A stretch of 64,000 nt of DNA, taken from a virus. Below, one piece after another: positions 12,328 to 37,361 of the stretch; position 1 is the first letter of the stretch; each line of letters begins with the position of its first letter. The position numbers and the translations under genes were made by a program. Location of the stretch: the IMG/VR virus record IMGVR_UViG_3300005393_000209; one strand, 5' to 3'. The notes under the pieces are model-generated. The model was not told the DNA's origin. It saw only the letters and a program-made list of their open reading frames with translations, and ran no database searches.

Positions 12328-12363
12328 GTTGTTTCTCCCTTTTGTGTTATGTTTTGTGCTTCA

Positions 12364-12392
12364 AATATATTGTGCGATTTTTTCTATGTCAA
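12364..12392 (-). promoter_or_regulatory. Sigma70 promoter of ardC
   Basis: TTGACA-17nt-TATATT. Confidence 0.75.
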
Positions 12393-12394
12393 GC

Positions 12395-12423
12395 AAAAAA
12401 AAAGACCTCCATCAGGAGGTCTC
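12395..12423 (-). terminator. Terminator of the replication operon
   Basis: AGACCTCC-TGAT-GGAGGTCT followed by a long U-run. Confidence 0.8.
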
Positions 12424-12445
12424 ACATAAGGGGAGAAACATAAAC

Positions 12446-12778
12446 TCAGTAATCAAGCGATATTTGCGTTCTTGAACCTAGAGCAAATTCTTCAAGCTGT
12501 TGAGTTATTTCATGCTGCCGAGCAATATCAAGATAATCATATTTTGACAAGTACGCGCACATATTCCCTTCATCAGGATTTATTATCTCCAAAGGATAGA
12601 GGAAATTCCTCATACGCCTAGAGACAAGGATGTAATCTCCAAAAAACAGAATGAAGGAGTCGGTTGACTCAGAAAAAAGTTGTTTGTCAGACCATTCGAT
12701 TAACGTTTTAGAAGCCTCCCTTGAAAGAGGCAAACCCTGTTCTTCTAATATATTTTGAGGCAGATTTCTTTGCAACAT
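12446..12778 (-). CDS. Hypothetical protein
   Basis: ORF in operon context. Confidence 0.55.
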   Translation of the reverse strand: MLQRNLPQNILEEQGLPLSREASKTLIEWSDKQLFSESTDSFILFFGDYILVSRRMRNFLYPLEIINPDEGNMCAYLSKYDYLDIARQHEITQQLEEFALGSRTQISLDY

Positions 12779-12803
12779 ACCTTTACCCTAAAATTTAACA
12801 GAA

Positions 12804-13871
12804 TTAAGCTCTCATCGGCATTACAAGAGCCAAATAAGAATCAGAACCAAACTCTTTGATTGTAACAGGTATAACCTTGCTAGAAATAGATATCTCAGGA
12901 ACTTTAAAAAAGTCTAAAGTATTAAGAATATAATCCAAATTCAAAATAAGCTCGACTTCGCCGCCACCTCCTTTCACCTCAATAACATCCTCCGCCTTTC
13001 CTACTTGAGGATTATCAACCACAAGGGAAAGTTTAGAGTTTGAATATTCTAATCTTATTGCTTTATGAGCATCAGAAGCCATTACAGAAACCCTATTTAT
13101 CGCCGCTTTTAGAGATGTCTCAGTGTCAGTAAATACTACATCATGAGACAATCCACTAAGGAGTTTATTATAATCAGGATAGTCGCCGTCTCTTAACTGG
13201 ATGGCAAAAGCATCATGCCCTACCCGTATAACAAAATATTTCTCATAAATCCCGTAATACATATCGTTAGATGAATATCTTGTCAAGAACTTAATTGCTT
13301 TGTCTATACCTATTCTATCGAGAAGGAGTTTTTGTGGAAGTTCCCCCAAGATTCTCCTTTTTGATAGAGTCAACCTATGCCCATCGGTAGCAACTAATTC
13401 CCCGTTCGTATCGAAAAATAAACAATCAAGATTGAGCCTCGACTCGCTCGTTGATGCCGCATATCTAACTTTTTCAATCTCCTGAATAAAAAGTTCTCTG
13501 TTAACACTGATAAACTCCTTTTCCTCCGGTTTTAACCATAAAGGAAAACTATCAACAGGAAAAACGGGGAGAGTAAAATGTGAGTTACCGCTATCTATTT
13601 GCAGTCGGTTACTGTTTACAGTAAGTCTAATATCTGTCTCACAGCATTTAATAATCTCAAGGAACTTGTAACCATTGACACAACATCCGAAAGTTTCATC
13701 TGCTTCCGGAATCTCAACAATCGCCCCATAATTTAGATGGGTAGCCTCAAGCCTTAGTTTTTCCTCTCCTGCCGTAAGTTTGATACAATCCAAGATAGGC
13801 ATGTTAGATTTTCCTATCCCGGTAACAACCTTTTCTAAAGCTCCAAGGAGTATGTATTTTTTGATAATCAT
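12804..13871 (-). CDS. dnaN: DNA polymerase III beta sliding clamp
   Basis: MPIL..I, VATDGHRL, GDYPDY, LVMPMR motifs; 355 aa. Confidence 0.95.
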   Translation of the reverse strand: MIIKKYILLGALEKVVTGIGKSNMPILDCIKLTAGEEKLRLEATHLNYGAIVEIPEADETFGCCVNGYKFLEIIKCCETDIRLTVNSNRLQIDSGNSHFTLPVFPVDSFPLWLKPEEKEFISVNRELFIQEIEKVRYAASTSESRLNLDCLFFDTNGELVATDGHRLTLSKRRILGELPQKLLLDRIGIDKAIKFLTRYSSNDMYYGIYEKYFVIRVGHDAFAIQLRDGDYPDYNKLLSGLSHDVVFTDTETSLKAAINRVSVMASDAHKAIRLEYSNSKLSLVVDNPQVGKAEDVIEVKGGGGEVELILNLDYILNTLDFFKVPEISISSKVIPVTIKEFGSDSYLALVMPMRA

Positions 13872-13932
13872 CTATATCTCCTCGACAAAACCCACAAACG
13901 ATATTTCCTTAATAATACCCGTATCAGAGCGT

Positions 13933-14235
13933 TCATTTCTTTTCTACCCCTTGTTCGTCAGAAAGGATAGAAAGTGTTGTTGTTTTTCTCTTTAACAAAA
14001 TGTCAAGTTTATCCTCAAGCCGTTTCAATCTGGTAACTTCAAAAAATGGTATGCAATCACATTTATCCTGCTGAAGAATTAAGTTCATCTTGTTCTCTAG
14101 TCTCATTACTTGCATCTGCAAGAATCCTGTCTCATACTGTAATTGCCGCAAGGTAACATGCCCCATACAATAGGTAGTCAAAAGGACAGCGCCCAAGAAA
14201 ATAACAATACAACCAATAATTTTTAATATTTTCAT
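13933..14235 (-). CDS. Hypothetical membrane-anchored coiled-coil protein
   Basis: N-terminal hydrophobic helix. Confidence 0.5.
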   Translation of the reverse strand: MKILKIIGCIVIFLGAVLLTTYCMGHVTLRQLQYETGFLQMQVMRLENKMNLILQQDKCDCIPFFEVTRLKRLEDKLDILLKRKTTTLSILSDEQGVEKK

Positions 14236-14777
14236 TTTGGTCGCTCCATCTCAGGATTTGTTATCCTGCCTCCTCCCCATATCCCTTTGTAAGCGTCTGT
14301 TTGTGGAGAATCAAACTCAGCAAAAACCAGATGAATAAATTCTGCCCCTTTCTCAATAATTGTAGGTCTCACTACCTCTACTCCAACTGTTAGTTGTCCA
14401 TTAAATCCCGGATGAACTCCTCCGGAATAAACCTTTACACCATACCTGAGGCATCTTGAGCGTGACTCAATAAACGCATGAGCAAAGGAAGGAACACTAA
14501 CTGACTCTACTGTTTGAGCCAAATAATACTCATGTGGTAACAACATCCAACTATCAGGAGCATCACTATAAAGTTCAACATCCTCTACTTCTGTTCCTGC
14601 TGTTCCATGAACCCCTATTATAGGAGGATTTCTTTGACGTTTTAAAACACATAGCCTCCCTATCTTTAGGTTAATAGCCGAGCCTTCTATGAAGTTAAGC
14701 TGTCTTCCGGATAAACTACTTGTTAATTTTATACCGTCATTAGCTAAGTTTCTTATGCTACTTGCTGAAATAAGCAT
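14232..14777 (-). CDS. dcd: dCTP deaminase/dUTPase family
   Basis: SRS..R.G and VHPGFNGQL motifs; GGAGGAGG SD before ATG 14777. Confidence 0.85.
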   Translation of the reverse strand: MLISASSIRNLANDGIKLTSSLSGRQLNFIEGSAINLKIGRLCVLKRQRNPPIIGVHGTAGTEVEDVELYSDAPDSWMLLPHEYYLAQTVESVSVPSFAHAFIESRSRCLRYGVKVYSGGVHPGFNGQLTVGVEVVRPTIIEKGAEFIHLVFAEFDSPQTDAYKGIWGGGRITNPEMERPK

Positions 14778-16411
14778 TCTGTTTGCTCCTCCTCCTGAGT
14801 TAAAGTCCAGAGTCCAGTTTGGTCGCTCCATTCCAAGTCAAAAACCGTATCTCCAATATCCCTCCCGCTAATGGTAAGTTCTCCAATCATTTGCTTCCGG
14901 TCTGGTCTCACAAAACTCCAGATTGTGTCAGCTACTCCTGTAATTGCATTAGAACCGGATATTTTCTCAAAATAATCCTCTGTCATTCCTTTTTTATGAT
15001 GATGTACAAGAATTAGAGCTATCCCATGTTTCCACGCTAAATCATGGAGCTTTGAGAGTTCCTCATATTCACGTTCATAAAGTGTTGTTCCAAAAGATGT
15101 ATCCCCTGAGCGGATTTTGGCAAATGTGTCAACGATAACCATTTTAGGAAAGGATGTATTCTCAAGCCATTCATCTATTGATGTAATAGCATCTTCCCCG
15201 GTAGGCCATTTATTCGTAAAGAAAGCATTTGGACTAATTTCCCCTCCATTAGCAATCTTCTTTATCCTTGATTGAAATCTACGGGGAGGGTCTTCCAGCG
15301 CAAGATTTAACACCGCTCCAGAATTTGTTGAGAACTTTTCGCATCCGAGCGCAGGGGTTCCGAGAGTGACACAATGACATAATCCCTGAATCAACCAACT
15401 TTTACCAACCTTAGGAGGCCCGGCTAATACCGTTAATCCTTCAGGAAGAATCCCCTTAATAATCCATGAAGGTTCCGGTAATTTTTGGTCAACCAAGTCT
15501 ACCCATGAAACTATTGTTGTTTCATTCTCTTTCTTCTTATGTTTAGCTTTAACAGGGAGAGCTTCTTTTTTTGAAACCCATGTAGAAATCTTGATTAATT
15601 CCTCCTCAGTTAAAGGAGGTCTACATCTCTGTTGATTTACCTCCCTTAAAGCATTGAGAAGAGGAGCTCCATCAAGGTAAGAGTTTCGGAGTCTAGCCGC
15701 TACTTGAATTAATGACTGATGTCTGGTTCCTTCTGGGAAAAAAGAATCAGACTCTTGAAGGATTTCTCCGATAGATAATGGCGGTTCTTCCAAATCGAGC
15801 TTAAAAAAATCAATAAGCTCATCTAGTTTGTATTCCGCATCAGGATTTAAGGAAACACATCTTGTAAGGAATGGTTCTCCCTTTAGATGAAAAAATCCGG
15901 GGAGCCTCATCACTCGTGGTAAGTCATTAACACTTATATCCCCATGAAATTTTCTAGCAATAGCTCTCTGAACTTTCGAGAACATATCTAGCCTATCGTC
16001 AGAAACCCTCCAATAAACATGGAACTTCTGAGGAGAGGTTTCCACAATCGCCGTAGGACAAAACTCCTCTTTTGTCGCTTCTAGTAACGGCTCAATAGGA
16101 GCTCCATCCAAATCTACAAATATGGCTCTTATACGGGAAATACTTGATTTTGTTCTCCCTCTCCCGTCTCCTGCATTTACCATGAAAAAGATTCCATACC
16201 CCTGCTCATTACTACGGATAAGCCATTTTGACGCCATATCAAAAGTTAGGTATTTATAGGCTCCTGAAAGAACGGAATCCTTTTTGTCTCCAAAAATCTG
16301 AAAGCATAGATTGGTAGGAGGATTAAACAATCCTTTCAAAAAACTAGCAGTATCATTTAAATTTACTTGCATAGTTTCCATTTTCTTTTCCCCATTTTGG
16401 GCATCTGACAA
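14753..16411 (-). CDS. Primase-helicase (RepB-type primase + PriCT + AAA_25 helicase)
   Basis: FVDLD, ETSPQKFHVYW, RVMRLPG; GPPKVGKS Walker A, IVDT, LVHH. Confidence 0.9.
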   Translation of the reverse strand: MSDAQNGEKKMETMQVNLNDTASFLKGLFNPPTNLCFQIFGDKKDSVLSGAYKYLTFDMASKWLIRSNEQGYGIFFMVNAGDGRGRTKSSISRIRAIFVDLDGAPIEPLLEATKEEFCPTAIVETSPQKFHVYWRVSDDRLDMFSKVQRAIARKFHGDISVNDLPRVMRLPGFFHLKGEPFLTRCVSLNPDAEYKLDELIDFFKLDLEEPPLSIGEILQESDSFFPEGTRHQSLIQVAARLRNSYLDGAPLLNALREVNQQRCRPPLTEEELIKISTWVSKKEALPVKAKHKKKENETTIVSWVDLVDQKLPEPSWIIKGILPEGLTVLAGPPKVGKSWLIQGLCHCVTLGTPALGCEKFSTNSGAVLNLALEDPPRRFQSRIKKIANGGEISPNAFFTNKWPTGEDAITSIDEWLENTSFPKMVIVDTFAKIRSGDTSFGTTLYEREYEELSKLHDLAWKHGIALILVHHHKKGMTEDYFEKISGSNAITGVADTIWSFVRPDRKQMIGELTISGRDIGDTVFDLEWSDQTGLWTLTQEEEQTECLFQQVA

Positions 16412-16640
16412 TTATCTTAGGACTGACAAAATCATTCCTCTCGTGAATTGTGCAGAACCCATTGATATATTTTTCACATTTTTGACAGTTAAACTTTAAC
16501 TCAGGGAACGGACAGAATTCTAAACTGTTAATCACTGAGTCACCGCAGAAATCCAACCCCTTTATTCTCTTGTGCTGTTTACACAGATTACATCTTCCGA
16601 TAGTCGGAGGAGTCGCTGGAGCCATCATTTCTTCCTCCAT
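16353..16640 (-). CDS. Small Cys-rich protein
   Basis: Multiple CxxC motifs; operon context. Confidence 0.5.
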   Translation of the reverse strand: MEEEMMAPATPPTIGRCNLCKQHKRIKGLDFCGDSVINSLEFCPFPELKFNCQKCEKYINGFCTIHERNDFVSPKIIVRCPKWGKENGNYASKFK

Positions 16641-17104: not shown

Positions 17105-17117
17105 CCTCCGTTAATAA

Positions 17118-17552
17118 TTAGAATCCAAATTCAGGTTCACTTTTAACTGCTTGTTTTTCCTTTATTCTTGCAAGCGAAACCTTTTCAAAAATGTTGACAT
17201 ACTGCGTTTTTCCGTTAGTTCTAGTTTCCAGTAAGAGGGTAGTTCCCTTAAATTTTGGGAGTTCATTCTCTATATCTTTCCCTTTTGCTGTTAACCCTAA
17301 GATTGACAAATCCTTTTTAAATCGAGCTAAAACTTTTTCTCCCTGCGATAAATATGTTGGTTTCCTGATTGAGTATCCTTCATATTCCCCATCTACTACC
17401 GTAAAATGCCACCACATAACTTTTCCATATTCCCCATCGGTAAGCTCATAATCATCAAAACGGGCAATATATTTCCCATCAGGAACTCTTGGAGGGTAAA
17501 TCTTCACCTCCAGTTTGTCGTATTCTTCAACTAGCTCATCAAAAAATCCCAT
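17118..17552 (-). CDS. DUF669-like putative ssDNA-binding protein
   Basis: VPDGKY, F.VVDGEYEG motifs; acidic/aromatic C-terminus; coupled to exonuclease. Confidence 0.65.
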   Translation of the reverse strand: MGFFDELVEEYDKLEVKIYPPRVPDGKYIARFDDYELTDGEYGKVMWWHFTVVDGEYEGYSIRKPTYLSQGEKVLARFKKDLSILGLTAKGKDIENELPKFKGTTLLLETRTNGKTQYVNIFEKVSLARIKEKQAVKSEPEFGF

Positions 17553-19153: not shown

Positions 19154-19234
19154 TTGACAACCATAAAATTTTGTATTACGGTTTGTCATAGATTATTTAG
19201 TGTTGAATGTATCAGGCATCAGACATTTTGTCAA
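19154..19234. promoter_or_regulatory. Pair of face-to-face sigma70 promoters (genetic switch region)
   Basis: + TTGACA(19154)-17-TACGGT; - TTGACA(19234)-17-TACATT. Confidence 0.7.
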
Positions 19235-19274
19235 GTTAAAAAAACACACAAGACAAAAAAAAGGAGAGACAAGG

Positions 19275-19820
19275 ATGGAAAAGAAGTATAGCTGGAGTCA
19301 CCCTCTCCGGAGACTCATGATGCTCCGGTTCCCTTATGAGCACAAAACTAATTTCTACTCCCGAATAGGGGTAAGCCGCGGGTTTATGTCACGGCTCTCT
19401 AATACTCCTGATACAGGAGTTACCGTCAAGACGTGGCAGGAGATACTTGAAAAAGCAGGAGTTAAGAATCCTGTACTTATACAATGGCTCCTTTTCGGAG
19501 GAGAACCCTCTAAAAACATACTGAGACTCCTCAGGAAATATCATGGAAAAATTACAGATATTCCAGATATAAATTATGAAATATTCGTTTCCCGCTTGAA
19601 CCATTTCAGGCTTGAGGATGAAAGTAAGAATAGCTTTATAATCCGCTTGGGGATTCCTGCTCATGTATGGGAACAATGGGAATTTAGCCATACAAAGGAA
19701 ATCTCCCCTTCGGAAGTGAAGAGGATTTGCGATGTTATAGGGATAGATTACCGCTCTCCAGAGGGAGTTTGGCTAATGTTTTCCTCAAAAAATCCTCCAC
19801 CTAAAACAGTTAACAATTAA
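19275..19820 (+). CDS. Putative repressor with two XRE-like HTH domains
   Basis: Two repeats of F..R.G.....S/W......I.....G....WL.F; divergent from the replication operon. Confidence 0.55.
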   Translation: MEKKYSWSHPLRRLMMLRFPYEHKTNFYSRIGVSRGFMSRLSNTPDTGVTVKTWQEILEKAGVKNPVLIQWLLFGGEPSKNILRLLRKYHGKITDIPDINYEIFVSRLNHFRLEDESKNSFIIRLGIPAHVWEQWEFSHTKEISPSEVKRICDVIGIDYRSPEGVWLMFSSKNPPPKTVNN

Positions 19821-19979: not shown

Positions 19980-20190
19980 ATTCTTATTTTATATTTTTAT
20001 AAATTATATATGTACTGTACTTATATATTATATATATTATATTAGTATTGTACTTATATATATTATATATATTATATTATATAATATATAATATTATATA
20101 TTATATTATATCCTTCATCCTGTATATATTTCTTTTCTTTCTTTTTCTTTTCTTTTTCGTTCTTTTTCTTTTCTTTTTCTTTCTTTTCTT
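19980..20190. repeat. AT-rich TATAT low-complexity tract plus pyrimidine tract; candidate replication origin
   Basis: Nearly pure A/T 19985-20110 with repeated TGTACTTATATA, then T/C tract. Confidence 0.55.
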
Positions 20191-20222
20191 TACGCCAACA
20201 CAAAATGCCAAACGTATCAGAC

Positions 20223-20580
20223 ATGTCACGCCACATCACACATAAGTTGCTGACATCAACGAAAAGCCACCTCAGAGGCTCGCTGTTCCATTTTTTCCTC
20301 AAGGTAATACCAACATAGCCAACAGGTATAAAAATCCCTCAGAATTGAAAAAAGACCCCTTTTCGTTGAATTACGTTTTTTTGGTTATAAGCTTATTTTT
20401 CTTTGTTCCATCTGTAAAACATTATGTCACGCCTGAGAAAAGTTACAGACATCAAAAATAAGGGGTATAGGAGGCTCACTGTTCGATTTTTTGTATAAAG
20501 TAATACCAACATAGCGGGGAGAGTATAAAATGCGTTAAAATTGAAAATAGACCCCTTTTTGTTGATTTCAGGTTTTTTAT
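20223..20580. repeat. Imperfect tandem duplication, two ~160-bp units with ~200-bp period
   Basis: Shared blocks ATGTCACGCC, GACATCAA, GAGGCTCRCTGTTC, GTAATACCAACATAGC, AATTGAAAAWAGACCCCTTTT in the same order. Confidence 0.85.
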
Positions 20581-21421: not shown

Positions 21422-21423
21422 GG

Positions 21424-25742: not shown

Positions 25743-25767
25743 CTAATTGAGAAAAGGAAAAACAAAC

Positions 25768-25920
25768 ATGAAGAACAAAAACATAGTCTTTTCTCAGGAT
25801 TTCCAAAAAAGGACAACTATCCGGATTTTAAAAAACAGAATTGAAGCTTGTCCAAAAATTGCCTATCCAACATTATGTCTGTTGAAGGAAATAGACAACG
25901 TAACCGGGGAGGGGGAATGA
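25768..25920 (+). CDS. Small hypothetical protein (50 aa, not in track)
   Basis: AAAAGGAAAAACAAAC leader; ATGA overlap with next gene. Confidence 0.55.
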   Translation: MKNKNIVFSQDFQKRTTIRILKNRIEACPKIAYPTLCLLKEIDNVTGEGE

Positions 25921-26189
25921 CGTGGAAATGTAAAGTATGTCAAAACTCTTCCTGTTTGGAAGTTGTAAGAGTTACGGAGAATCTTGAGAAGTTTTATAAA
26001 CAGGTTATCATCATTGGAGACACGGCATTTGTTTCTAATTCAGTTCCTCGCTCATTACTCTACGAGTTCTGTGCTTGTCCTGTTTGCGGAAAAAGAGAAT
26101 TTGATGATAACCTTGAAGATTACAGTTTAAACGACTTTGTGAGAAGGTATGGGCTCAAAATAAAGGATATAAAATACTTGACAAAGTAG
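25917..26189 (+). CDS. Zinc-ribbon protein
   Basis: CKVC...CPVCG. Confidence 0.6.
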   Translation: MTWKCKVCQNSSCLEVVRVTENLEKFYKQVIIIGDTAFVSNSVPRSLLYEFCACPVCGKREFDDNLEDYSLNDFVRRYGLKIKDIKYLTK

Positions 26190-26246
26190 AGAGATATGTT
26201 TTATGTATGTCCCATCGGACAATATAAAAATTCAGGAGGGATAAAG

Positions 26247-26453
26247 ATGGATGAAATCTATCTCATAATATGGTCAATACTTCTCTTGCTGATTTATATC
26301 CTTCCGGGGATTATTGCAAGGAGACAGAAAAAAGAAAATGCTGACGCAATATTTATCCTTAACCTCCTGCTTGGATGGACTTATGTTGGTTGGGTAATAG
26401 CTCTTGTTTGGGCATTAATGAAAGACAAGAAAGAAACATGTAAAACAGTTTAA
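26247..26453 (+). CDS. imm: Superinfection immunity protein (T4 Imm family)
   Basis: Y.LP.IIA.R......IF.LNLLLGWT..GW..ALVWA; own promoter at 26178. Confidence 0.9.
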   Translation: MDEIYLIIWSILLLLIYILPGIIARRQKKENADAIFILNLLLGWTYVGWVIALVWALMKDKKETCKTV

Positions 26454-26462: not shown

Positions 26463-26516
26463 AAATCCCTGCGTCATTTCTTTTGTTTCTCCTTTAAAAC
26501 GCAGGGATTTATTTTT
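26463..26516 (+). terminator. Long-stem terminator with a 24-nt pyrimidine-rich loop
   Basis: AAATCCCTGCGT...ACGCAGGGATTT followed by ATTTTT. Confidence 0.7.
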
Positions 26517-26598
26517 CCTAAAATCCTTCCCTTTTTTATTCAAAAAAACCCACAATTTTAAGAAACCTTTCCGCCATTTAGTGTTCGTATTGTTAGCA

Positions 26599-27414
26599 AT
26601 GCCGAACATTAAACAAAACACTATTATTTGCGGGGATTCTGCCATAATTATGCTAGATTTTCCTGATAGTTGTGTTGATTTAACCGTGACCAGTCCGCCT
26701 TACGACCAACTAAGACGATATAACAACTACCAGTTTAATTTTCCAGCCATTGCTAACCAGATTTTTAGAGTGACAAAAAACGGTGGTGTCCTTGTGTGGA
26801 TTGCCGCTGACCAAACAATAAATTTTAGTGAAACAGGAACATCCTTTAAACAAGCCCTCTATTTTAAAGAAATAGGCTTCAATCTCCTTGATACAATGAT
26901 TTATGCAAAAGAAGCTGTAGGAGCTTGTGGTTCCAAATATGCTTATAATCAAGCTTTTGAATATATGTTCGTCTTTGTGAAGGGTAAACCAAAAACATTT
27001 AATCCCATCAAAACAGCCCCAAAACAAGCAAACAAAAGGCGCATGTATCAGGTTAGTCGCAGCAACAAAGAAGGATTCATAAAAACCCATATTGCAAAGA
27101 CTGCCCCACCGGAAAGTAAAAAAACGAATGTTTGGTCATATAGTATAGGATTCCGCAACTCCAAAATCCCCACAGGACATCCTGCTGTCTTTCCCCTCAA
27201 CCTAGCAAAAGACCATATCCTTTCATGGAGCAACGAAGGTGATTTGATTTTAGACCCCATGTGCGGTTCTGGAACAACCTTAATAGCGGCATCACAACTC
27301 AATAGAAACTTCATCGGGATAGAAATTAGTGATAAGTATTGCGAAATCGCTTCCAACAGACTAAAACAGGAAACTTTTTCTTTAAAAAACGCACATAATG
27401 TCTATGGTAGCTGA
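26599..27414 (+). CDS. Beta-class N4-C/N6-A DNA methyltransferase 1
   Basis: TSPPY, HPAVFP, LDPMCGSGTT. Confidence 0.92.
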   Translation: MPNIKQNTIICGDSAIIMLDFPDSCVDLTVTSPPYDQLRRYNNYQFNFPAIANQIFRVTKNGGVLVWIAADQTINFSETGTSFKQALYFKEIGFNLLDTMIYAKEAVGACGSKYAYNQAFEYMFVFVKGKPKTFNPIKTAPKQANKRRMYQVSRSNKEGFIKTHIAKTAPPESKKTNVWSYSIGFRNSKIPTGHPAVFPLNLAKDHILSWSNEGDLILDPMCGSGTTLIAASQLNRNFIGIEISDKYCEIASNRLKQETFSLKNAHNVYGS

Positions 27415-28243
27415 CATTAAACAAAATACAATTATGTGCGGGGATTGTGTAGAAATATTAAAAGGATTTCCTGATAATTATGTTGACTTGACTGTTACCT
27501 CTCCTCCTTATGATAACCTGAGGGATTATGACGGATATTCTTTAAACTTCCCTTTATTAGCGGAGGAGCTTTTCCGTGTAACTAAGGACGGGGGAGTTAT
27601 TGTTTGGGTAGTTGGGGACGCAGTTGTTAAGGGTTCCGAGACTGGAACATCTTTCAGGCAAGCGCTCCATTTTAAAGAAATCGGCCTCCGACTTCATGAC
27701 ACTATGATTTATCAAAAAAAAGGAGTCACTTTCCCTTCAAATAACCGTTATTTCCAAGCCTTTGAGTATATGTTTGTTTTTTCCAAGGGGAAGCCTAAAA
27801 CTTTTAATCCCTTGATGGATAGACATAATTTAAGGGTAGGGGAGGAGGCATTAGGAAAATACACTGTTAGAGCTACTGACGGAAGAATGATTCCCCGAAA
27901 AAAACCCAAACCATACCCTGAGCGTAGTATGAGATATAATGTTTGGGAGCTAAACACAGCGGCACAAGAAAGGCCATGTAAACCTCTTCCTCATCCTGCA
28001 CAATTTCCTCTCCGCCTTGCCCGCGACCATATCCTTTCGTGGAGTAATCAAGGAGATTTAATCCTTGACCCTATGTGTGGAGCAGGAACAACTCTCTTAG
28101 CGGCGGCCCAACTTAATAGAAACTTTATCGGAATAGAAATAAGTCATAAATATTGTGAAATTGCCTCCAACAGGCTCGAACAGGAAACTATCCCTCTATT
28201 TTTTAAGGAGCAAACCTATGGTGGTAAAGAAGAAAACTATTGA
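27398..28243 (+). CDS. Beta-class N4-C/N6-A DNA methyltransferase 2 (paralog of 1)
   Basis: TSPPY, HPAQFP, LDPMCGAGTT. Confidence 0.92.
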   Translation: MSMVADIKQNTIMCGDCVEILKGFPDNYVDLTVTSPPYDNLRDYDGYSLNFPLLAEELFRVTKDGGVIVWVVGDAVVKGSETGTSFRQALHFKEIGLRLHDTMIYQKKGVTFPSNNRYFQAFEYMFVFSKGKPKTFNPLMDRHNLRVGEEALGKYTVRATDGRMIPRKKPKPYPERSMRYNVWELNTAAQERPCKPLPHPAQFPLRLARDHILSWSNQGDLILDPMCGAGTTLLAAAQLNRNFIGIEISHKYCEIASNRLEQETIPLFFKEQTYGGKEENY

Positions 28244-28799: not shown

Positions 28800-30230
28800 A
28801 TGCAGGAAACCGAAAAGAAAACTCCCCTGATTAATCTCTACAAAGGGGATTGTGTTGATGTTTTTAAAACTCTCCCGGAGAACTCTATCGACGCGATAGT
28901 AACAGACCCTCCTTATGGCATAAGGTTTATGAATAAAAAATGGGATTATGAGATTCCAAGTGTAAAAATATGGGAGGAAGCTTTCCGATTACTAAAACCG
29001 GGAGCTTATATCCTTGTCGCTTGTGGAACTCGAACATATCACAGAATGGTTTCCAATATCGAGGATGCAGGGTTTCAAATCAGGGATTGTATCGTTTGGG
29101 CCTATGGAAGCGGTTTTCCAAAAGGTCTCAATATATCCAAGGATATAGATAGACAACTAGGGTGCGAGAGGGAAGTGGTAGGCAAAGCAACCAGACATGG
29201 TGGCGGTAATTCACAAATAATAAAAGGTGATTATAATCCTGACATCACCATACCCTCATCACCCCTCGCTAAACAATACGACGGGTATCATACAGCCCTT
29301 AAACCAGCTATCGAACTTTGGTGCCTCGCCATGAAACCAATATCCGAAAAAAATATCGCACAAAATGTCCTCAAATGGGGAACAGGAGGAATTAATGTCG
29401 ATAGTTGTAGAATACCTACAAAGGATAGTTTATCCGGAGGAAATGTATCCGGGCAATATAAAGCTTATGATGGTTGGGACAGACCGTGGAGGCATGACGC
29501 CGAACATCTAAAGATAATAAAAGAAATAGCTAAAGAAAAAATAAAATTAGCGGAGGAGTTAGGGAGGTGGCCAGCAAACCTTATTATTGAGAACAGTGAT
29601 GAAGTTAAGGAGCTTTTCCCAATAACAAAGAGCGGAAAAATGAATCAGCACGTTAATGGCGGACAATATAATATATTCGGAAAACAGTATCCTCGTCATG
29701 TCAAAACTCATGGAGACTCAGGCTCCGCCTCCCGCTTCTTTAAGCTTATCCCTAATGATACATCAAGGGAAAATTGTATCCAATTCAGTAAGCTTAAGCG
29801 TCATTTTAGTTACGGGGAAGAATCAGACTTATCGGCGGCCAGATTCTTTGCCTCATTTTCACTTCATGATGATAAACGACTTATTTACTGTTCTAAAGCG
29901 TCTCCCAAAGAGAGGAACGAGGGTCTCAATGAACTTCCTGCTGAGAATAATATGAGAGTTAACGCTCCAAGAAGTAATGAACAGGAAAAATTTCAGACAA
30001 AACACCGGAATAATCATCCAACAGTTAAGCCAATATCTCTTATGAGGTATTTATGCCGCCTAGTCACTCCTCCTGAAGGTATTATCCTCGACCCCTTTAT
30101 GGGGAGCGGCTCCACCGGGGTAGCTGCATTCATGGAGGATTTTAATTTTATCGGGATAGAAATTAATCCAGAATATTTTATAATATCAAAAAAGAGAATA
30201 GAGTATTATAAAACAGGAAAAGCCGCCTAA
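28800..30230 (+). CDS. Beta-class DNA adenine methyltransferase 3 (long phage type)
   Basis: TDPPY, YGSGFPK, GRWPAN, HPTVKP, LDPFMGSGSTG. Confidence 0.93.
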   Translation: MQETEKKTPLINLYKGDCVDVFKTLPENSIDAIVTDPPYGIRFMNKKWDYEIPSVKIWEEAFRLLKPGAYILVACGTRTYHRMVSNIEDAGFQIRDCIVWAYGSGFPKGLNISKDIDRQLGCEREVVGKATRHGGGNSQIIKGDYNPDITIPSSPLAKQYDGYHTALKPAIELWCLAMKPISEKNIAQNVLKWGTGGINVDSCRIPTKDSLSGGNVSGQYKAYDGWDRPWRHDAEHLKIIKEIAKEKIKLAEELGRWPANLIIENSDEVKELFPITKSGKMNQHVNGGQYNIFGKQYPRHVKTHGDSGSASRFFKLIPNDTSRENCIQFSKLKRHFSYGEESDLSAARFFASFSLHDDKRLIYCSKASPKERNEGLNELPAENNMRVNAPRSNEQEKFQTKHRNNHPTVKPISLMRYLCRLVTPPEGIILDPFMGSGSTGVAAFMEDFNFIGIEINPEYFIISKKRIEYYKTGKAA

Positions 30231-30275
30231 AAAGACGGCTTCCCCTGACAAAAACAAAAAAGGAAAAACAAACAT
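30212..30275 (-). ncRNA. Candidate ~60-nt antisense sRNA (promoter 30280-30308, terminator 30220-30241)
   Basis: TTGACA-17-TATCCT; U-rich body complementary to early-gene SD leaders; hairpin pairs fully only on minus strand (G.U). Confidence 0.55.
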
Positions 30276-30325
30276 ATAAAGGATATCTTACCCTGACTAT
30301 GTTGTCAACAAGGATGTTAAAATTA

Positions 30326-30352
30326 AAAAGGCTCCTCTCAGGGAGCCTTTTT
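30326..30352. terminator. Bidirectional terminator
   Basis: AAAAGGCTCC...GGAGCCTTTT. Confidence 0.75.
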
Positions 30353-30355
30353 AAA

Positions 30356-30562
30356 CTAAGCATAAAGCTGATACCAATCCTTTTCACCTATCCTGAAGAT
30401 TACATTTCCAACCTCATCGCAAGCTATTCCTCCTTTAACCGCCTTCTTTTTGTCTACCATATAGTATTTTGTCTTCCCAACTTGCTTTGCTTCTGCTTCA
30501 ACTTTTGTCACTTTGCCGCTCTTTACGAATACTATTGTTTCTTTTGTTACTGGGAATTCCAT
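30356..30562 (-). CDS. Small early protein
   Basis: Own promoter (-35 at 30622-30627), AAGGAGAAACAAA leader, terminator. Confidence 0.65.
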   Translation of the reverse strand: MEFPVTKETIVFVKSGKVTKVEAEAKQVGKTKYYMVDKKKAVKGGIACDEVGNVIFRIGEKDWYQLYA

Positions 30563-30702
30563 TTTGTTTCTCCTTGAAGTGTGTTTTGTTAAGAACCCTT
30601 ATAATGCACGACTAAAAGCGATGTCAAGAAAAAAATACATGAAACAACTTATTTTGTATAAAAAATCTTTAACTTTTTGTTCCGTACGCGTACGCGCACA
30701 TT

Positions 30703-30730: not shown

Positions 30731-31078
30731 CTATACTATCCGTATAGTATCCGCATGGGAGGAAAAGAGAGGCCACAACTCCTGTCTTATTGAGGAGTAT
30801 TCTATTTCCCCTTTATTCCTGTTATTAACAAATAATACAGGGAAGCCGCAGCCTTCAACACGTTTTTTCTCGTAGATAACCTCACTGTCTCCTCCGAAAG
30901 CTATCTTTTTCCCTTTCCAAAACGCCTCAAAAGCTATTCTCCCTACTTCTTTACAAACAACCGTGAGATTATCTGTAAGCCTGAGCGCCTCGACATTGCT
31001 TTTTGAGTTTTTAATTGATTCCATTGTAGCCGCTAATTCTCTTTTTGACTTTGTGAATTCCATTCTCATGTTAGGCAT
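30731..31078 (-). CDS. Early hypothetical protein
   Basis: Own promoter TTGACA(31147)-17-TAATTT and AAGGAGAGACAAA leader. Confidence 0.65.
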   Translation of the reverse strand: MPNMRMEFTKSKRELAATMESIKNSKSNVEALRLTDNLTVVCKEVGRIAFEAFWKGKKIAFGGDSEVIYEKKRVEGCGFPVLFVNNRNKGEIEYSSIRQELWPLFSSHADTIRIV

Positions 31079-31165
31079 TTTGTCTCTCCTTTGTGGTTTT
31101 GTTTCGTTCGTGATTTCAAAATTACATTACAAAAAACATTTTGTCAAGAAAAAAATACATTCAAC

Positions 31166-31462: not shown

Positions 31463-31475
31463 CCTTTCTTAAAGT

Positions 31476-31545
31476 AAAATTAAAGCCGCTCCTGAGGAAG
31501 GTAGCGGCTTTATAGTGTAGTGAGTTGGGAGGTAACTTTTAGTGA
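31476..31545 (-). ncRNA. Candidate ~70-nt sRNA or attenuated leader with anti-SD sequence
   Basis: Promoter TTGACA(31579)-17-TACTAG, ACCUCCC body, AAAGCCGCU...AGCGGCUUU hairpin. Confidence 0.4.
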
Positions 31546-31606
31546 TTCTCCTAGTATCAGGAGCGTTACATTTTGTCAAGAAAAAAATACATAAGACATA
31601 AAAAAA

Positions 31607-31843: not shown

Positions 31844-31845
31844 TT

Positions 31846-32277
31846 CTATTTTTCCTCGAATTTAATCCTTATTTTCTTGTCGTGGGCATACAACAAATAA
31901 TCATAAAAATCCTCCAAATCAAGCTTCTTTCCATTTATTACAGGTATATTGTTCTCCAGCGTGAGGAACTGCTCTTCTCCAACAGAAACCTTTCCACCCT
32001 CATAAAGAAATCCTATTATCCCAACCCCGAAATCCTCGATTCTCGACAATAACCTCATGCCTAAGCTATCCTCTATATCCTGAATCTTCTCCCTTGCATC
32101 CGAAATCCCTTTTCCCGCTTCACGAACTTTCTCAGTATTCCCTCCAGAATAATCAAAATCCCTTAAATCCTTAAGTATCGAGGATATGTTTTCATTACAT
32201 TCCTCAATATGTCTCCTCTCCTCAATCAAGTTTACTATTTCCATTGAAATTCGCTCTAAACTAGCCGTGGCTGACAT
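31846..32277 (-). CDS. Hypothetical protein (coiled coil + L..GG domain)
   Basis: Own promoter TTGACA(32338)-17-TACATT and SD. Confidence 0.6.
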   Translation of the reverse strand: MSATASLERISMEIVNLIEERRHIEECNENISSILKDLRDFDYSGGNTEKVREAGKGISDAREKIQDIEDSLGMRLLSRIEDFGVGIIGFLYEGGKVSVGEEQFLTLENNIPVINGKKLDLEDFYDYLLYAHDKKIRIKFEEK

Positions 32278-32475
32278 GTTCTCCCTCCTTTGTTAATATC
32301 TGTTTGTTAAATGTAAAAGGAAAAAGACAAAATGTCAACAAAAGGAGACAAAAAAAAGGAGCCAACAGACTCCTTTTTCCTTAACAGGTATTATTCACGG
32401 TTTATAAGAAGGAAACTCCCTAAAAATATTAAAAATATTGTAATCCAACTCGAATAATAAGCAACATCAACAATC

Positions 32476-33259: not shown

Positions 33260-33261
33260 TT

Positions 33262-33477
33262 TTATCTCCTACGCCTATTCTGTTCCTGAAAAAATAGCTT
33301 ATTAGCTAAATCAATAGCCTCTCTTTCATCCTTAGCCTCAATAGCTACCTCTAAATATTCGCCGACAATAGAAACTTCATCCAAATCCAACAGAAAAACA
33401 GCAGACAAGCTAACACCTTCACGTCGCTTAACCCTCCAAATCTTCCTCATTATCCTCTCCCTTGTTGTATGGCTCAT
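33262..33477 (-). CDS. Hypothetical protein
   Basis: ORF in minus-strand early operon. Confidence 0.45.
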   Translation of the reverse strand: MSHTTRERIMRKIWRVKRREGVSLSAVFLLDLDEVSIVGEYLEVAIEAKDEREAIDLANKLFFQEQNRRRR

Positions 33478-33515
33478 TCCAACGCTCGTGGATATACCTC
33501 AACTCCTCAGTTCTG

Positions 33516-33761
33516 CTAATCACCTTCATTTCCATAACCATTCTCCTCTAAAAAACCCTTTAATGACTCCAGACATTTCTTCCCCTGCTTAACATCCACC
33601 AATATCTCGTCGTAGAGACCCTCTAAATCAATATCCTCACTCCCATACTTCAAGTCTAAAGCCAAAAACTCCAACTTATCCATCATAGCGCTAATCTGGT
33701 ATACCCACGACATAGGAGCCGGGATATAATCAAGCCCTAAAATCTTAATCAACTCCTGCAT
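33516..33761 (-). CDS. Hypothetical protein
   Basis: GGAG SD before MQELIK. Confidence 0.5.
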   Translation of the reverse strand: MQELIKILGLDYIPAPMSWVYQISAMMDKLEFLALDLKYGSEDIDLEGLYDEILVDVKQGKKCLESLKGFLEENGYGNEGD

Positions 33762-34017
33762 TATCTCCCTCCGATAGAACTCTCCCGTAAGTAGAATTAA
33801 AACCAAAAACAACTACCCTGTTAACCCTCCACGCCCCATGAGCACAAAAAGAATCCCATAGAACTAATTCCATCTTCTTATCCAAATGACATAAATATCC
33901 ATCAACATCATAGACAGAATATACACAGTTAGAACAGTTCATATCCTCAAATCGAGGATTAACCACCCGCTTCATCTCAGGCATCACTCCCTCCTGTAAC
34001 CGCAGAATCCACCTCAT
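33745..34017 (-). CDS. Small Cys-rich protein, resembles 28218-28493
   Basis: CSNC...C.LD...FC..GAW. Confidence 0.5.
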   Translation of the reverse strand: MRWILRLQEGVMPEMKRVVNPRFEDMNCSNCVYSVYDVDGYLCHLDKKMELVLWDSFCAHGAWRVNRVVVFGFNSTYGRVLSEGDNAGVD

Positions 34018-34195
34018 TACCCTCCTTATACGCAGACTCCACCAAAGGAAACCCTTCCCTTAAAGCAGACTCCAAGTCATCGGCCAAAACGTGAACGCCG
34101 TAACTATTCCCCAAAGCTACCACCTCCCCCAACCTCAGAACCGGACTAACAAATAAACCATCCGGCCTCCTCAATAACTTATAAATCATTATCAT
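33977..34195 (-). CDS. Hypothetical protein, first gene of leftward early operon
   Basis: GGAGG SD; promoter TTGACA(34250)-17-TACTTT. Confidence 0.55.
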   Translation of the reverse strand: MIMIYKLLRRPDGLFVSPVLRLGEVVALGNSYGVHVLADDLESALREGFPLVESAYKEGNEVDSAVTGGSDA

Positions 34196-34299
34196 CCTCC
34201 TGATATCCTGAACTTTAGCCTAAAGTATCCTCCATTTAACATTTTGTCAAGGCTAAATGACATAAGGAATTTAGTGAAGAATTAAGGAGGGGTTTAGTA

Positions 34300-34830
34300 A
34301 AAAATGAAAATTTTTGGGGAGTTACTCCCCCCCCAATAGGGGTAGGGGGGAGTCGAGGAGGTCGAGGGGTAGTACTCAAGACACCTCGAAGTATACCTCA
34401 GGGGAAAAGCTCCTCCCGAAAGTCGAGAGGATAGAGAGAGTGAAGGAGGCATTGACTCTCATCAGAGAGGAGTCAGGTTCTAATGTGCTATCATGAGTCA
34501 TGATGATACACCTCCTGAAATTACTAAGGGAATCCATCTTGGCAATCAATCCTGTAATCATTTCTTTTGCAGTTCCTAAAGACTCCTTGAGATTTTCTCG
34601 AAGAATCCTTCAGTCAGTGACTCCATCCTTGAGCTCTACCCCTTCCTTTCCCTTGAGAATGACATCGAGGGAAAAGGGATTAAGGGATAAGGTATTACGG
34701 AGGGTATTGTACTTGTACCCATGAGCGGGATAAGGGGTATTTTCGAGGAGAATCCTCTCTATCGAGAAGGGAGAGGAAGTCGAGCTTCCTCCGGCTTCAG
34801 CAGGGCGCGGTTCCCATCATTGTCTTCCAG
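34300..34830. other. Hairpin-rich non-coding island with clustered TCGAG; candidate packaging/terminus region or ncRNA
   Basis: No credible ORF, multiple stems, nine TCGAG/CTCGA pentamers, strand-skew switch. Confidence 0.5.
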
Positions 34831-35011
34831 TCCATAATCATCCATCATATTTTATACAAAAACGTCATACCATATCCCCTTGAAATTACTACCCATAGAA
34901 TATCCTTCAAGCTTTACAAAATCCTTCTAAGTTATTAATAAAAGAAACAAATTCGTGTGTTACTTGTCACTTAAATTTAACACTACCTTTCATACATAAA
35001 AAGGAGGTTTT

Positions 35012-35617
35012 ATGGGAAAAGGAGAAGGAAAAGGGAAAGGGAGATACAGGACAAGAGATATACTCTTAGTGTATCCGTGGATTCCAAGGAGAACTTTATT
35101 GAAGCGGCTTTATGACAGATACGTATGCACGAGATGGAAGCGGACGGAGAAGGATAAATACAGGATATTCAGTATCGAGGATATTGTCGAGATAGGAATC
35201 CATGAAGAATTAATAATATATGGATTCATGGAGAGGAGTTCAAAATTGATGCGTAGTGTCATGGTAGTTGATGAGTTTATGTTGCCGATAGAGTTTCAAA
35301 GGAATGACAAAGGAGAGAGGATTGGAAGGAAGAGGATTTATAAGACAGGAGTTGTCAGGAGCTTCCCTGTTCCTGCTAATTGGAGTTGCGCTAACTTTAT
35401 AAGACACCACGACTATGAAGTCGTAGTTAGAGCGGTTGTAGAGCATTCTGAGGGGAGGAGATACTATGGGGTTACTTATATACCTACTTCGTTACAAAGT
35501 AGTTTAAAATTCACCTACGTTGGGAATTTTAGCTGTTTAGACATAGATGTAAAAAGGATATATAATCACGTCTCCAGTTCTTTGACCGAGAATTCAACAT
35601 CTGAGATAATAGCTTGA
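35012..35617 (+). CDS. Hypothetical protein with possible MerR-like HTH N-terminus
   Basis: AAGGAGG SD; Y.T.DI.....IP.RTL...R.FS.EDI pattern. Confidence 0.5.
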   Translation: MGKGEGKGKGRYRTRDILLVYPWIPRRTLLKRLYDRYVCTRWKRTEKDKYRIFSIEDIVEIGIHEELIIYGFMERSSKLMRSVMVVDEFMLPIEFQRNDKGERIGRKRIYKTGVVRSFPVPANWSCANFIRHHDYEVVVRAVVEHSEGRRYYGVTYIPTSLQSSLKFTYVGNFSCLDIDVKRIYNHVSSSLTENSTSEIIA

Positions 35618-35946
35618 ATTTGAGCCACGAGTTCTGGATGTGCCGACATCCTCCTCCTAACCTCCTCTTTTATCATCTCCGCTGTTTCCTGATAGACTCT
35701 TGCCTTTTGATGTTCTCTTTGGTCTACCGTAATGACTGCTTTACCGAGAGTCGCAAACGCCATGACAAGCTTATAGAATTCATTTACATCTATTGACGTG
35801 GAGTAATTAACCTCTACGTTTTTAGTAATTGTGTCGCAGGTTTGGATAATCTTCTGGAGAACCTCCTTAAAACCATTCAAGACAGAATCATCAATTGCTT
35901 TAACTGGAGCAACATGAGTAATAACTTCGGTATTTCTCTTTGCCAT
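35566..35946 (-). CDS. Helical protein, possible terminase small subunit (DUF3486-like)
   Basis: C-terminal IKEEVRRRMSAHPELVAQI resembles Mu gp27/DUF3486 C-termini. Confidence 0.35.
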   Translation of the reverse strand: MAKRNTEVITHVAPVKAIDDSVLNGFKEVLQKIIQTCDTITKNVEVNYSTSIDVNEFYKLVMAFATLGKAVITVDQREHQKARVYQETAEMIKEEVRRRMSAHPELVAQIQAIISDVEFSVKELET

Positions 35947-36155
35947 TATTTCTTATCCTTATCAGATGAGATTCCTCTGAGCATTGCTCCAATAATGGCG
36001 GAAAGAGGAGATATTAAGGCTGAAATAACTTCAGAGTTTACAGCCTTTATTTTTGTTTCTGCTCCATACGGTTGGCCGATGGCTACGAATATTATAGCTA
36101 CTGTAAAGAGAATAAATCCGAGAGCTAAAGCTTTTTGGATTGCGTTTTCTGACAT
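35946..36155 (-). CDS. Small two-TM membrane protein (holin-like)
   Basis: Two hydrophobic helices; TAATG-coupled to 35946. Confidence 0.45.
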   Translation of the reverse strand: MSENAIQKALALGFILFTVAIIFVAIGQPYGAETKIKAVNSEVISALISPLSAIIGAMLRGISSDKDKK

Positions 36156-36268
36156 AAAAAAGAAAACCTCCCGAAAAAAAATATATTGTTATTATGAAAA
36201 AAAGCTTGACAAAATGTTCCATGCACGATATTTGTAGCTTCACATTACAACACAAAGGAGAAACAAAA

Positions 36269-36556
36269 ATGAAGGCTGCATTAAGAATCGCTCAAGAATT
36301 AGTTGCTTCCCTTGACAAACATTCTTACGAATATGGTTGTATCAGCAATCATATCTCAACAAGTCTGTATGACGCCCTTTGCAAAGGTCGTATCAACCGT
36401 TTCAAATATAACGGGAATGTCCTCTCTTACTCTCACAAAAATCATTGCTGGAAGCTTAACAGGAAGAATCTTGATACAAATTATCTTAATACCTCTCAGG
36501 AACTTGAGGCTCAAGCGAAGATTGAAATTCACTGGCCTCATGCTACAATCGAGTAA
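36269..36556 (+). CDS. Early hypothetical protein
   Basis: Promoter at 36206, AAAGGAGAAACAAAA leader, hairpin at 36566-36595. Confidence 0.65.
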   Translation: MKAALRIAQELVASLDKHSYEYGCISNHISTSLYDALCKGRINRFKYNGNVLSYSHKNHCWKLNRKNLDTNYLNTSQELEAQAKIEIHWPHATIE

Positions 36557-36612
36557 TATACCTTTCCCCGGAGGATTTCTCCTCCGGGATTTTTTTAAAA
36601 AGGAGAAACAAG

Positions 36613-36996
36613 ATGGAAGAATTCTTCAGAAGAGCTAGAAAGAATAAGCTAATTGCGGAGTGCGTCGAGGAGCTCTATGAGCTTTGGGTTGAATTAGGAA
36701 AACCAGAACCTCCCGAAGGGCCATCCACCGAGTTTAGAGGAGCTCCTGCTTTTCTTCATGAGGATGAAATCGAGGGTCTCTCTCCAGAGGATACAGAAAG
36801 GGAAGTTCAGCGATATAATGACTCCTTGGTTCAACTCCTTGAACTCTGCGATATAAGACATATAGGGAATGGAGTTTGGTATACCCAATATAACAAAGGA
36901 ACTAATGAATGGCAGGAATATATAGAGAAATCTTGGGAGATAGCTCATGATTACTTCACAAATTATATGTTTGATTTCTTTGTAGATACTCTATAA
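36613..36996 (+). CDS. Acidic hypothetical protein
   Basis: AAGGAGAAACAAG leader; terminator 37020-37060. Confidence 0.65.
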   Translation: MEEFFRRARKNKLIAECVEELYELWVELGKPEPPEGPSTEFRGAPAFLHEDEIEGLSPEDTEREVQRYNDSLVQLLELCDIRHIGNGVWYTQYNKGTNEWQEYIEKSWEIAHDYFTNYMFDFFVDTL

Positions 36997-37136
36997 AAAT
37001 AGTCATTCACCGTTAAGAGCCTTAATGGGGTAGAATCCTCATTAAGGTTTTTTATTTTTTTTAAAAAAAGCTTGACAAGAAAAACAGTTTGCATTATATA
37101 ACAGACATCAAACAAAAACACATAAGGAGAAACAAA

Positions 37137-37361
37137 ATGGAGCTCGTAAACGTTGAAAAAATAACCGCCGAGGAAATGATGGAGGAGCTTTTAAAGGGTT
37201 TTTACTTTTCAACATACAAGGGAGTTATTGAGGTAAATGTCTCCGCTCCTATCCTTTACCACAAAAAGGGACGCCAAAAAGAGATAATCGGGGTAGAGGA
37301 GATAGATAAAATAATAAAACACTCAAAAAAAACAGGTAAGCCTATAAAAAAGGCTGCCTAA
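37137..37361 (+). CDS. Early hypothetical protein
   Basis: Promoter at 37072; AAGGAGAAACAAA leader. Confidence 0.65.
   Translation: MELVNVEKITAEEMMEELLKGFYFSTYKGVIEVNVSAPILYHKKGRQKEIIGVEEIDKIIKHSKKTGKPIKKAA

Follow-up and report, generated by a model that had tools for sequence, protein, structure and literature searches.

In cluster K mycobacteriophages, a 13-bp start-associated sequence (SAS/ESAS) recurs in 11-19 copies, and four phages carry one inverted SAS that is not tied to a gene start and whose role is stated as unknown (PMC3203893, PMC11373665, PMC12699233); the accessible parts of these papers, to which, as for all works cited here, our comparisons are confined, propose no RNA from the inverted copy. 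Temperate phages also make small RNAs that pair at a ribosome-binding site and block translation, namely c4 of P1/P7 and the 68-69-nt sar of P22, and lambda OOP is a 77-nt cis RNA with its own promoter that acts on cII by overlap; c4, sar and OOP each control one message (PMC12197685). The window analyzed here, the whole 64,000-nt stretch of IMG/VR record IMGVR_UViG_3300005393_000209, is an uncultured, near-complete temperate tailed phage (myophage), in which eight genes share a leader running from the Shine-Dalgarno (SD) sequence to the start codon and inverse copies of this leader, designated E1, E2, E3 and E5, lie away from gene starts. We favor, at a probability of about 45%, a two-layer translational control predicted from pairing energies, consisting of one likely trans-acting small RNA (sRNA; E3), a possible loop seed (E2), and two cis locks (E1 and E5). 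The original prediction for this DNA, that one antisense seed produced from several loci could silence a class of early genes, was accompanied by the statement that no described phage system is built this way, which is too strong in view of the inverted SAS of cluster K (PMC3203893) and of c4 and sar (PMC12197685); a literature search of titles and beginnings of abstracts, partial in coverage, returned no phage RNA silencing many phage genes through a shared leader.

The motif AAGGRRARACAA, followed by ATG within 1-2 nt, stands exactly before genes 19275, 25768, 30562, 31078, 36269, 36613, and 37137 (genes are named by their start positions), and with one mismatch before ardC (12327), so that the common leader originally proposed was found at all eight positions, seven of them exact. 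Its predicted recurrence was also borne out by count: the window holds 10 exact copies compared with 0.27 expected, a number reached by none of 100 shuffles, and 19 copies compared with 6.57 expected when one mismatch is allowed, although these counts are flattered by the post hoc definition of the motif. The tenth exact copy lies inside a coding sequence (17151-17162). All eight class leaders are located between 12327 and 37137, none at late-gene starts, and the core of the motif is the SD itself, at a fixed distance from the ATG. Five of the eight genes have their own TTGACA box 63-69 nt before the start (61 nt for gene 32277), and the six promoter-bearing leaders are predicted to be open on their own transcripts, with opening costs of 1.1-3.7 kcal/mol. 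The A/C fraction is 0.65-0.80 in seven of the eight leaders and 0.47 in that of 36613, compared with an average of 0.47 for other genes. Promoters and leaders are clearly duplicated among the cassettes, and the family search assigned no family to six of the class genes. The shared leader by itself is not rare among viral loci, the combination of promoter and leader being present in 120 IMG/VR loci, 19 of which have three or more copies. It is not a generic site in the candidate hosts, given that five assemblies with related terminases yielded 3 matches in 22.2 Mb, as opposed to 7 in the 64 kb of the window.

To locate inverse copies, 24-nt pyrimidine-rich windows on both strands were scored against the eight class leaders. 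After the leaders' own opposite strands, the order was E3, E2, a stretch antisense to nrdJ, a baseplate gene (58372), a stretch antisense to gene 17552, E1, a stretch antisense to a late gene, and E5 (32335). Restricted to 32 intergenic segments (5,621 nt with the leaders masked), the scoring put E3, E2, E1, and E5 in the first four places, with mean duplex energies of -18.3, -18.0, -15.8, and -14.9 kcal/mol, respectively, and none of 58 dinucleotide shuffles matched any of these four top ranks, a result that demonstrates homology to the leader and does not separate a regulator from a relic. The matches to the inverse of AAGGRRARACAA are exact in E2 (26483-26494) and E3 (30260-30271) and looser in the other two: E1 (12423-12441) has two mismatches to the motif and an extra G that suits ardC, and the fourth copy, E5, lies in the spacer of the promoter at 32338, with gene 32277 as its leader-like partner. 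Thus, the three inverse copies foreseen initially are in place and are the top three intergenic windows, although only two are exact, and the hairpins are as described, with E2 in a 24-nt loop, E3 5' of a 15-bp hairpin, and E1 5' of a 9-bp terminator. The 19 other viral loci with at least three such leaders include none with a hairpin-linked inverse copy; they contain one intergenic exact copy away from a start, without a hairpin, and seven windows at -16 or better, of which six lie opposite a leader with its ATG and none, by inspection, is at a terminator-like hairpin. The anatomy is real and goes beyond composition: the repeats, their positions, and the promoter and hairpin sequences are present, and the complementarity is non-random. 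Two tandem one-mismatch inverse copies also occur at 58345-58368 on the sense strand of the baseplate wedge gene, the fourth-best window overall.

E3 is the best candidate for a trans-acting sRNA, likely of about 65 nt and predicted to pair with all eight leaders (Table 1). It lies between two terminators, its presumed start is the base that faces the start codon of the paired leaders, and its hairpin is firmer on the minus strand than on the plus strand (-25.0 vs. -15.8 kcal/mol), a gain of about 9 kcal/mol that is due to three G-U pairs. When E3 was compared with the 79 start regions of the window, the eight class genes ranked 1, 2, 3, 6, 7, 8, 9, and 12, or 1, 3, 4, 5, 6, 7, 9, and 11 with folding included. 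With G-U pairs allowed, the predicted pairing of E3 runs without a break over 13-20 bases in each of the eight leaders and over about 18 in 32277, because a U stands opposite both variable purines. Its exact complement to the leader of 25768 extends over 18 nt (25752-25769; Markov expectation about 1e-4), and the landing of this match on a start region is the telling part; Watson-Crick matches to the other class leaders are 7-9 nt long. The arm mirrors the A/C-rich leader, including bases upstream of the SDs of 37137 and 19275. E3 would probably be transcribed and could repress these genes by pairing in the cell. Among the changes listed for run X1, none falls inside E3, and a contig from run X11 spans 30147-30447 with 19 other letters and 17 gaps. 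The possibility that E3 is a leaderless message was rejected, the frame from the ATG at 30275 running through the terminator. The coding sequence of the second methyltransferase (27756-27795) shares 15 exact bases, in sense, with the 5' end of E3; the origin of E3 as a captured piece of that gene was not supported, the score of 38 being reached by 1 of 15 control chunks. The bidirectional hairpin next to E3 could end the methyltransferase operon on the plus strand.

The E2 hairpin starts 10 nt after the imm stop codon, and the four longest exact complements of E2 in 128 kb (both strands), of 15, 14, 14, and 13 nt, are all class leaders, those of 36269, 30562, 37137, and 36613. E2 places seven of the eight class genes within the top 9 of the 79 start regions, and it may act in trans as a loop seed, to judge from the computed pairing. 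We favor the plus strand for E2 because of its longer U tract and the imm stop codon 10 nt upstream. The element is kept in the X1 and X5 contigs with one extra T in the loop, although the methyltransferase gene that follows is absent there. This gene (26516-27383), the first of the methyltransferases, is replaced in these contigs by a skip of 868 nt with 58 other letters; it lacks a clear SD and shows 76% likeness to the next gene across 207 nt. E2 is not a general trait of imm genes, as none of 68 distinct 3' regions (from 80 of 254 imm loci) has a large anti-SD loop.

E1 and E5 appear to belong to a different layer, in which each would lock the ribosome site of the next gene on read-through RNA. 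The class genes rank between 8 and 58 of 79 for E1, its best partners include non-class starts with a G-rich SD, and it matches no class leader exactly over more than 10 nt, a length reached with the neighboring ardC; E1 is thus not class-specific and seems better explained as a cis lock on ardC. On read-through RNA, predicted pairing with E1 raises the cost of opening the ardC ribosome site from 1.1 to 13.2 kcal/mol. Likewise, the ribosome site of gene 32277 and its first codons can pair with the -35 box and spacer of E5 in a 20-bp helix that is predicted to raise the opening cost from 2.4 to 14.0 kcal/mol. None of the other promoter-bearing genes, 13 in all, shifts as much (the values for 34195, 19275, and 31078 are 4-7.5), although equally closed states occur elsewhere, with 32277 ranking 3rd and ardC 6th of 79 genes. 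The proposal of one trans-acting seed made from several loci therefore fares differently by element: in the comparison with the 79 start regions the class ranks high for E3, where the idea is fair, and for E2, where it is possible, and does not for E1.

In the model that we propose, the E3 RNA would act in trans on the eight class genes and on 32277 by pairing over their leaders from SD to AUG, and the imm terminator loop might hold another seed of this kind in E2. E1 and E5 would be cis elements that, on read-through RNA, fold over the ribosome site of the gene that follows; the controlled genes would be strongly expressed stand-alone genes. As for timing, a weaker part of the model, the E3 and imm RNAs might accumulate after infection and silence entry-phase genes such as ardC and 30562. 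Because the E3 and imm promoters are without the operator-like palindrome described below, these RNAs would persist under repression; the ardC and 30562 promoters likewise are without it, and in a naive cell, which has no such RNA, the entry-phase genes would be translated at once. More speculatively, the 3' untranslated region (UTR) of the methyltransferase operon, an exact antisense of E3, could titrate E3 in lytic growth. An extension of the model to an RNA immunity layer, in which E3 and E2 would silence the entry-phase genes of both the prophage and superinfecting kin, with the leader cis-locked and the lytic 3' UTR as a sponge, seems doubtful.

Table 1. Positions of the leader class, its inverse copies, and associated features in the window
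Feature	Coordinates	Strand	Details
E3 unit	30210..30308	-	promoter to terminator; z -6.72
E3 promoter	30308-30303 (-35), 30285-30280 (-10)	-	TTGACA, 17-nt spacer, TATCCT; sigma-70-type
E3 5' arm	30273-30248	-	putative start ~30273; U-rich, unpaired, anti-leader (~26 nt)
E3 hairpin	30247-30214	-	15 bp, then U tract
Terminator-like hairpin	30322..30356	both	between gene 30562 and E3 promoter; -19.4 / -18.3 kcal/mol
E2 hairpin	26463..26518	+	after imm; 12-bp stem 26463-26474 / 26499-26510, then U-rich tract
E2 loop	26475-26498	+	24 nt, complementary to SD, spacer, and AUG
imm cassette	26178..26453	+	TTGACA promoter-like site without palindrome; gene 26247-26453, PF14373 superinfection-immunity family
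E1	12394..12445	-	3' UTR and terminator of replication operon; anti-leader stretch 12441-12423
ardC cassette	11509..12392	-	promoter 12392-12364, motif 12340-12329, ArdC gene 12327-11509; PF08401, PF18818, phrog_7245
E5	32270..32384	-	terminator 32381-32350, then promoter 32338-32310
Repressor-like gene	19154..19820	+	gene 19275-19820, class leader 19261-19272, weak promoter-like site 19154
Gene 25768	25752..25920	+	class leader; 50 aa, no family
Gene 30562 cassette	30356..30627	-	promoter 30627 without palindrome, motif 30575-30564; 68-aa orphan
Gene 31078 cassette	30731..31147	-	promoter 31147 with palindrome, motif 31091-31080; 115 aa
Gene 36269 cassette	36206..36556	+	promoter 36206 with palindrome, motif 36255-36266; 95 aa
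Gene 36613	36567..36996	+	terminator 36567-36588, motif 36600-36611; 127 aa, no own TTGACA
Gene 37137 cassette	37072..37361	+	promoter 37072 with loose palindrome in spacer, motif 37124-37135; 74 aa
Palindrome TGACA-N3-TGT	13995, 19223, 20419, 31136, 31568, 32327, 34239, 36207		seven overlap a TTGACA box
Looser ACA-N3-TGY	19154, 20599, 37072
Tyrosine integrase	10392-11465
Replication operon		-	RecT to DnaN

The strict palindrome occurs 8 times compared with 1.42 expected (1 of 100 shuffles reaches the count), and ACA-N3-TGY is present within 10 of 15 hand-picked TTGACA sites compared with 0.042 expected per site; the TTGACA sites without it are those of E3, imm, ardC, 30562, and one late-region gene. 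The product of gene 19275 (181 aa) resembles helix-turn-helix (HTH) cro/C1 clusters, with a score of 0.93 that is to be taken as a lead. We infer that the palindrome is an operator and gp19275 a CI-like repressor, because the palindrome covers the promoter of the replication operon that faces this HTH-like gene. The promoters of the repressor-like gene and the replication operon (19234, minus strand) stand face to face at 19154-19234, with overlapping presumed starts and palindromes at both, an arrangement that we take to resemble a phage 186-type switch. Since gene 19275 itself carries the class leader and ranks 3rd-5th for E3 and 1st-4th for E2, the E3 and E2 RNAs could equally be a post-infection timer that lowers the repressor.

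Several points weigh against the two-layer control. The repressor-like gene as a predicted target is awkward for a role in lysogeny. The leader class was chosen after the sequences had been seen, all energies are predicted, and the control loci were at most 20 kb each, compared with 28 kb of the window. In a plain local alignment, the match of E3 to 25768 scores 36, which 2 of 15 unrelated 64-kb chunks also reach. E2 pairs poorly with 25768 (rank 37 of 79), its hairpin is slightly more stable on the minus strand (-19.0 vs. -17.4 kcal/mol), and that strand reads as a leader with a 5-codon frame. For nine of the 10 exact motif copies there is a predicted transcript that carries them in the sense orientation, which is what one would expect of a DNA or decoy site. 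Finally, no relative carrying the cassettes, from which covariation might be read, was found in IMG/VR, assemblies, or phage records.

The rival explanations bear on different parts of this evidence. That E3 is an OOP-type cis-antisense RNA of the methyltransferase mRNA 3' end, or an RNA with 25768 as its one target, its other pairing being incidental, is unlikely; we keep an OOP-like role in view because E3 overlaps, on the opposite strand, the third methyltransferase gene (28800-30230) in its last codons and 3' UTR, OOP itself being a short cis RNA with its own promoter (PMC12197685), and the 18-nt match to 25768 is the only long Watson-Crick match, the others having 7-9 nt. However, the entire 5' arm of E3 mirrors the leader, a resemblance to distant sites that a cis RNA would not require, and E2 is left unexplained. 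It is less probable still that the inverse copies are functionless leaders, decayed after cassette shuffling and left beside ordinary terminators. The duplication of promoters and leaders among cassettes and the fact that the opposite strand of E3 and E1 is a leader ending in ACATA rather than ACATG (E2 keeps the ATG) fit such relics, which the shuffle test does not tell from regulators; but no TTGACA lies about 65 nt upstream on that strand, no remnant frame extends beyond a few codons, all inverse copies abut hairpins, and the 19 control loci have only the one hairpin-free intergenic copy away from a start.

We consider two further readings to be decidedly improbable. The motif could be an asymmetric DNA site, or the RNA site of a protein, with the inverse copies simply being sense copies for the opposite strand. 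The stoperators of L5, asymmetric 13-mers that run in the direction of transcription and are recognized by a two-domain repressor of 183 aa (PMC9283540), offer the precedent, gene 19275 encodes an HTH-like protein of 181 aa, and the predominance of sense copies includes the E3 copy in the methyltransferase 3' UTR. Yet a separate palindrome is already on the -35 boxes, the SD forms the motif core at a fixed distance from the ATG, and the promoter and strand-biased hairpin of E3 and the 24-nt loop of E2, where no minus-strand promoter was seen, go unexplained. Alternatively, E1, E2, and E3 could all be trans-acting copies of one seed that silences the whole class, as originally envisaged. All three are the top intergenic anti-leader windows and are unpaired in the terminated transcripts, and cofolding with E1 ranks ardC 2nd and 37137 3rd; however, the wide spread of class ranks for E1, its non-class partners with G-rich SDs, and its short exact match to the neighboring ardC speak against this, and E1 and E2 would need processing from mRNA 3' ends. 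The combination of a trans-acting E3, a possible E2 seed, and cis-acting E1 and E5 remains our preferred reading.

Searches for related sequences covered both the cassettes and the rest of the genome. RecT and NrdJ searches of IMG/VR returned no relative, NrdJ matching one 1.4-kb metagenome fragment; the operator-plus-leader pattern had 0 matches, the gene 30562 search found its own record only, and the repressor-like protein has two relatives, without genomic context. Terminase relatives at 53-58% identity (7 viral loci and 5 assembly contigs) share the gene order, and their compared stretches contain neither the cassette region nor the motif. A blastn search of E3 and E2 against 50,697 phage records gave short weak pieces only, and the E3-type promoter-plus-seed pattern had 6 matches in IMG/VR, none with the E3 layout and two being the strand opposite a gene start. 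Rfam gave nothing at the gathering score and six weak matches, none on E1, E2, or E3, and E1-E3 and the small class genes yielded either nothing or sub-threshold matches in Rfam, tRNA, NCBIfam, and Atlas searches. Among the 79 proteins of the window, no antirepressor family was found (six class genes are without a family), and none matched RegB.

Family searches with these proteins identified terminase, portal, tape measure, and baseplate genes, NrdJ, ThyX, the imm-family gene, and three methyltransferases. Runs with at least half of the sampled words (7 of 13 rows) come from wastewater and bioreactor-sludge metagenomes of two studies. The assemblies with terminase relatives at 56-58% identity are labelled Syntrophaceae (1), Desulfomonile (3), and Verrucomicrobiota (1), and because such relatives sit in assemblies so labelled, the host may be an anaerobic member of the Desulfobacterota.

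Other features of the window stand apart from the leader class. A second promoter-to-hairpin unit, E4 (31470-31579, minus strand; promoter 31579, hairpin 31513-31484), is about 75 nt long, has a palindrome in its promoter, and contains ACCUCCC. It was rejected as a fifth seed, with class ranks of 47-74 of 79; the starts with which it is predicted to pair best are of the GGAGG type and belong to the 34195-32476 operon (32934, 33984, and 33259). E4 could function as a small RNA or attenuate the secreted-looking 80-aa gene 31462. The terminator before 36613 (36567-36611 region) holds an 8-nt complement of the 36613 SD, so that a partial transcript could fold over the ribosome site and the full hairpin could free it. 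Between the early cassettes lies a convergent block of small genes (35566-36155 on the minus strand and 35012-35617 on the plus strand) that includes a 69-aa membrane-like protein and an overlapping 201-aa orphan and for which the family search was blank. Just past the integrase stop codon, AAAATGATTAC(C/T)A units recur within 10056-10390, and one copy, at about 10375-10390, is inverted; these units are likely integrase arm-type sites of attP. Behind the repressor-like gene, 19990-20580 combines an AT-rich palindromic tract, a pyrimidine run, and two repeats spaced 196 nt apart and is likely a replication origin.

Compared with the described systems, the predicted layout of E1/ardC and E5/32277 is closest to that of T4 e, soc, 49, and I-TevI, in which longer upstream transcripts fold over the SD and AUG and an open message arises from a promoter that lies in the 5' arm or beyond it (PMC3014915). 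Here, too, the RNA from the own promoter would be open; unlike the T4 late promoters, these are sigma-70-type promoters behind a terminator in a temperate phage, known from predictions. Like OOP, E3 has its own promoter and terminator and is antisense to the end of a neighboring mRNA; unlike OOP, it additionally mirrors distant leaders. RNAs of the OOP type are further marked by RNase III-dependent decay of the mRNA that they overlap. For E2, the model is IS10 RNA-OUT, a cis-encoded RNA in which pairing of 35 bp begins in the terminal loop and blocks 30S binding (PMC4513863), although E2 is a hairpin at the 3' end of an mRNA and is exactly complementary to distant leaders over 13-15 bases. A gene class switched off post-transcriptionally through a shared element at early starts is known from the T4 RegB sites, made of GGAG and an A-rich element (PMC3014915); their consensus, GGAGRAYARAA, is read by a nuclease and differs from the spacer here. 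The L5 stoperators, at which the bound immunity repressor halts elongation, comprise at least 20 sites across the genome, compared with 10 exact copies here, 9 in sense and nearly all outside the late region. In prophage BTP1, superinfection exclusion is brought about by an antisense RNA (PMC7067206).

As for c4 and sar, E3 and E2 share with them a computed complementarity to phage ribosome-binding sites. However, c4 and sar control antirepressor synthesis only, whereas the predicted reach of E3, by way of a shared leader, extends to nine unrelated genes, and here neither an antirepressor target nor an Rfam family match was identified. In the accessible literature, each phage antisense RNA described as blocking translation has a single phage message as its target; should a phage RNA indeed read a shared leader, it would be a class-wide translational switch that needs no protein. 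The resemblance to the SAS of cluster K encompasses an asymmetric SD-containing repeat located a few bases before the ATG, at non-structural genes only, as well as an opposite-orientation copy away from gene starts; the SAS come after large gaps between genes and are often accompanied by a promoter that contains an inverted repeat. The consensus sequences, GGGATAGGAGCCC in cluster K and AAGGRRARACAA here, and the hosts are unrelated, and instead of one inverted copy there are four, one of them in a promoter-terminator unit and one in a hairpin loop. If the proposed control is real, it would also offer a route to testing what the start-associated sequences of cluster K and their lone inverted copy do.

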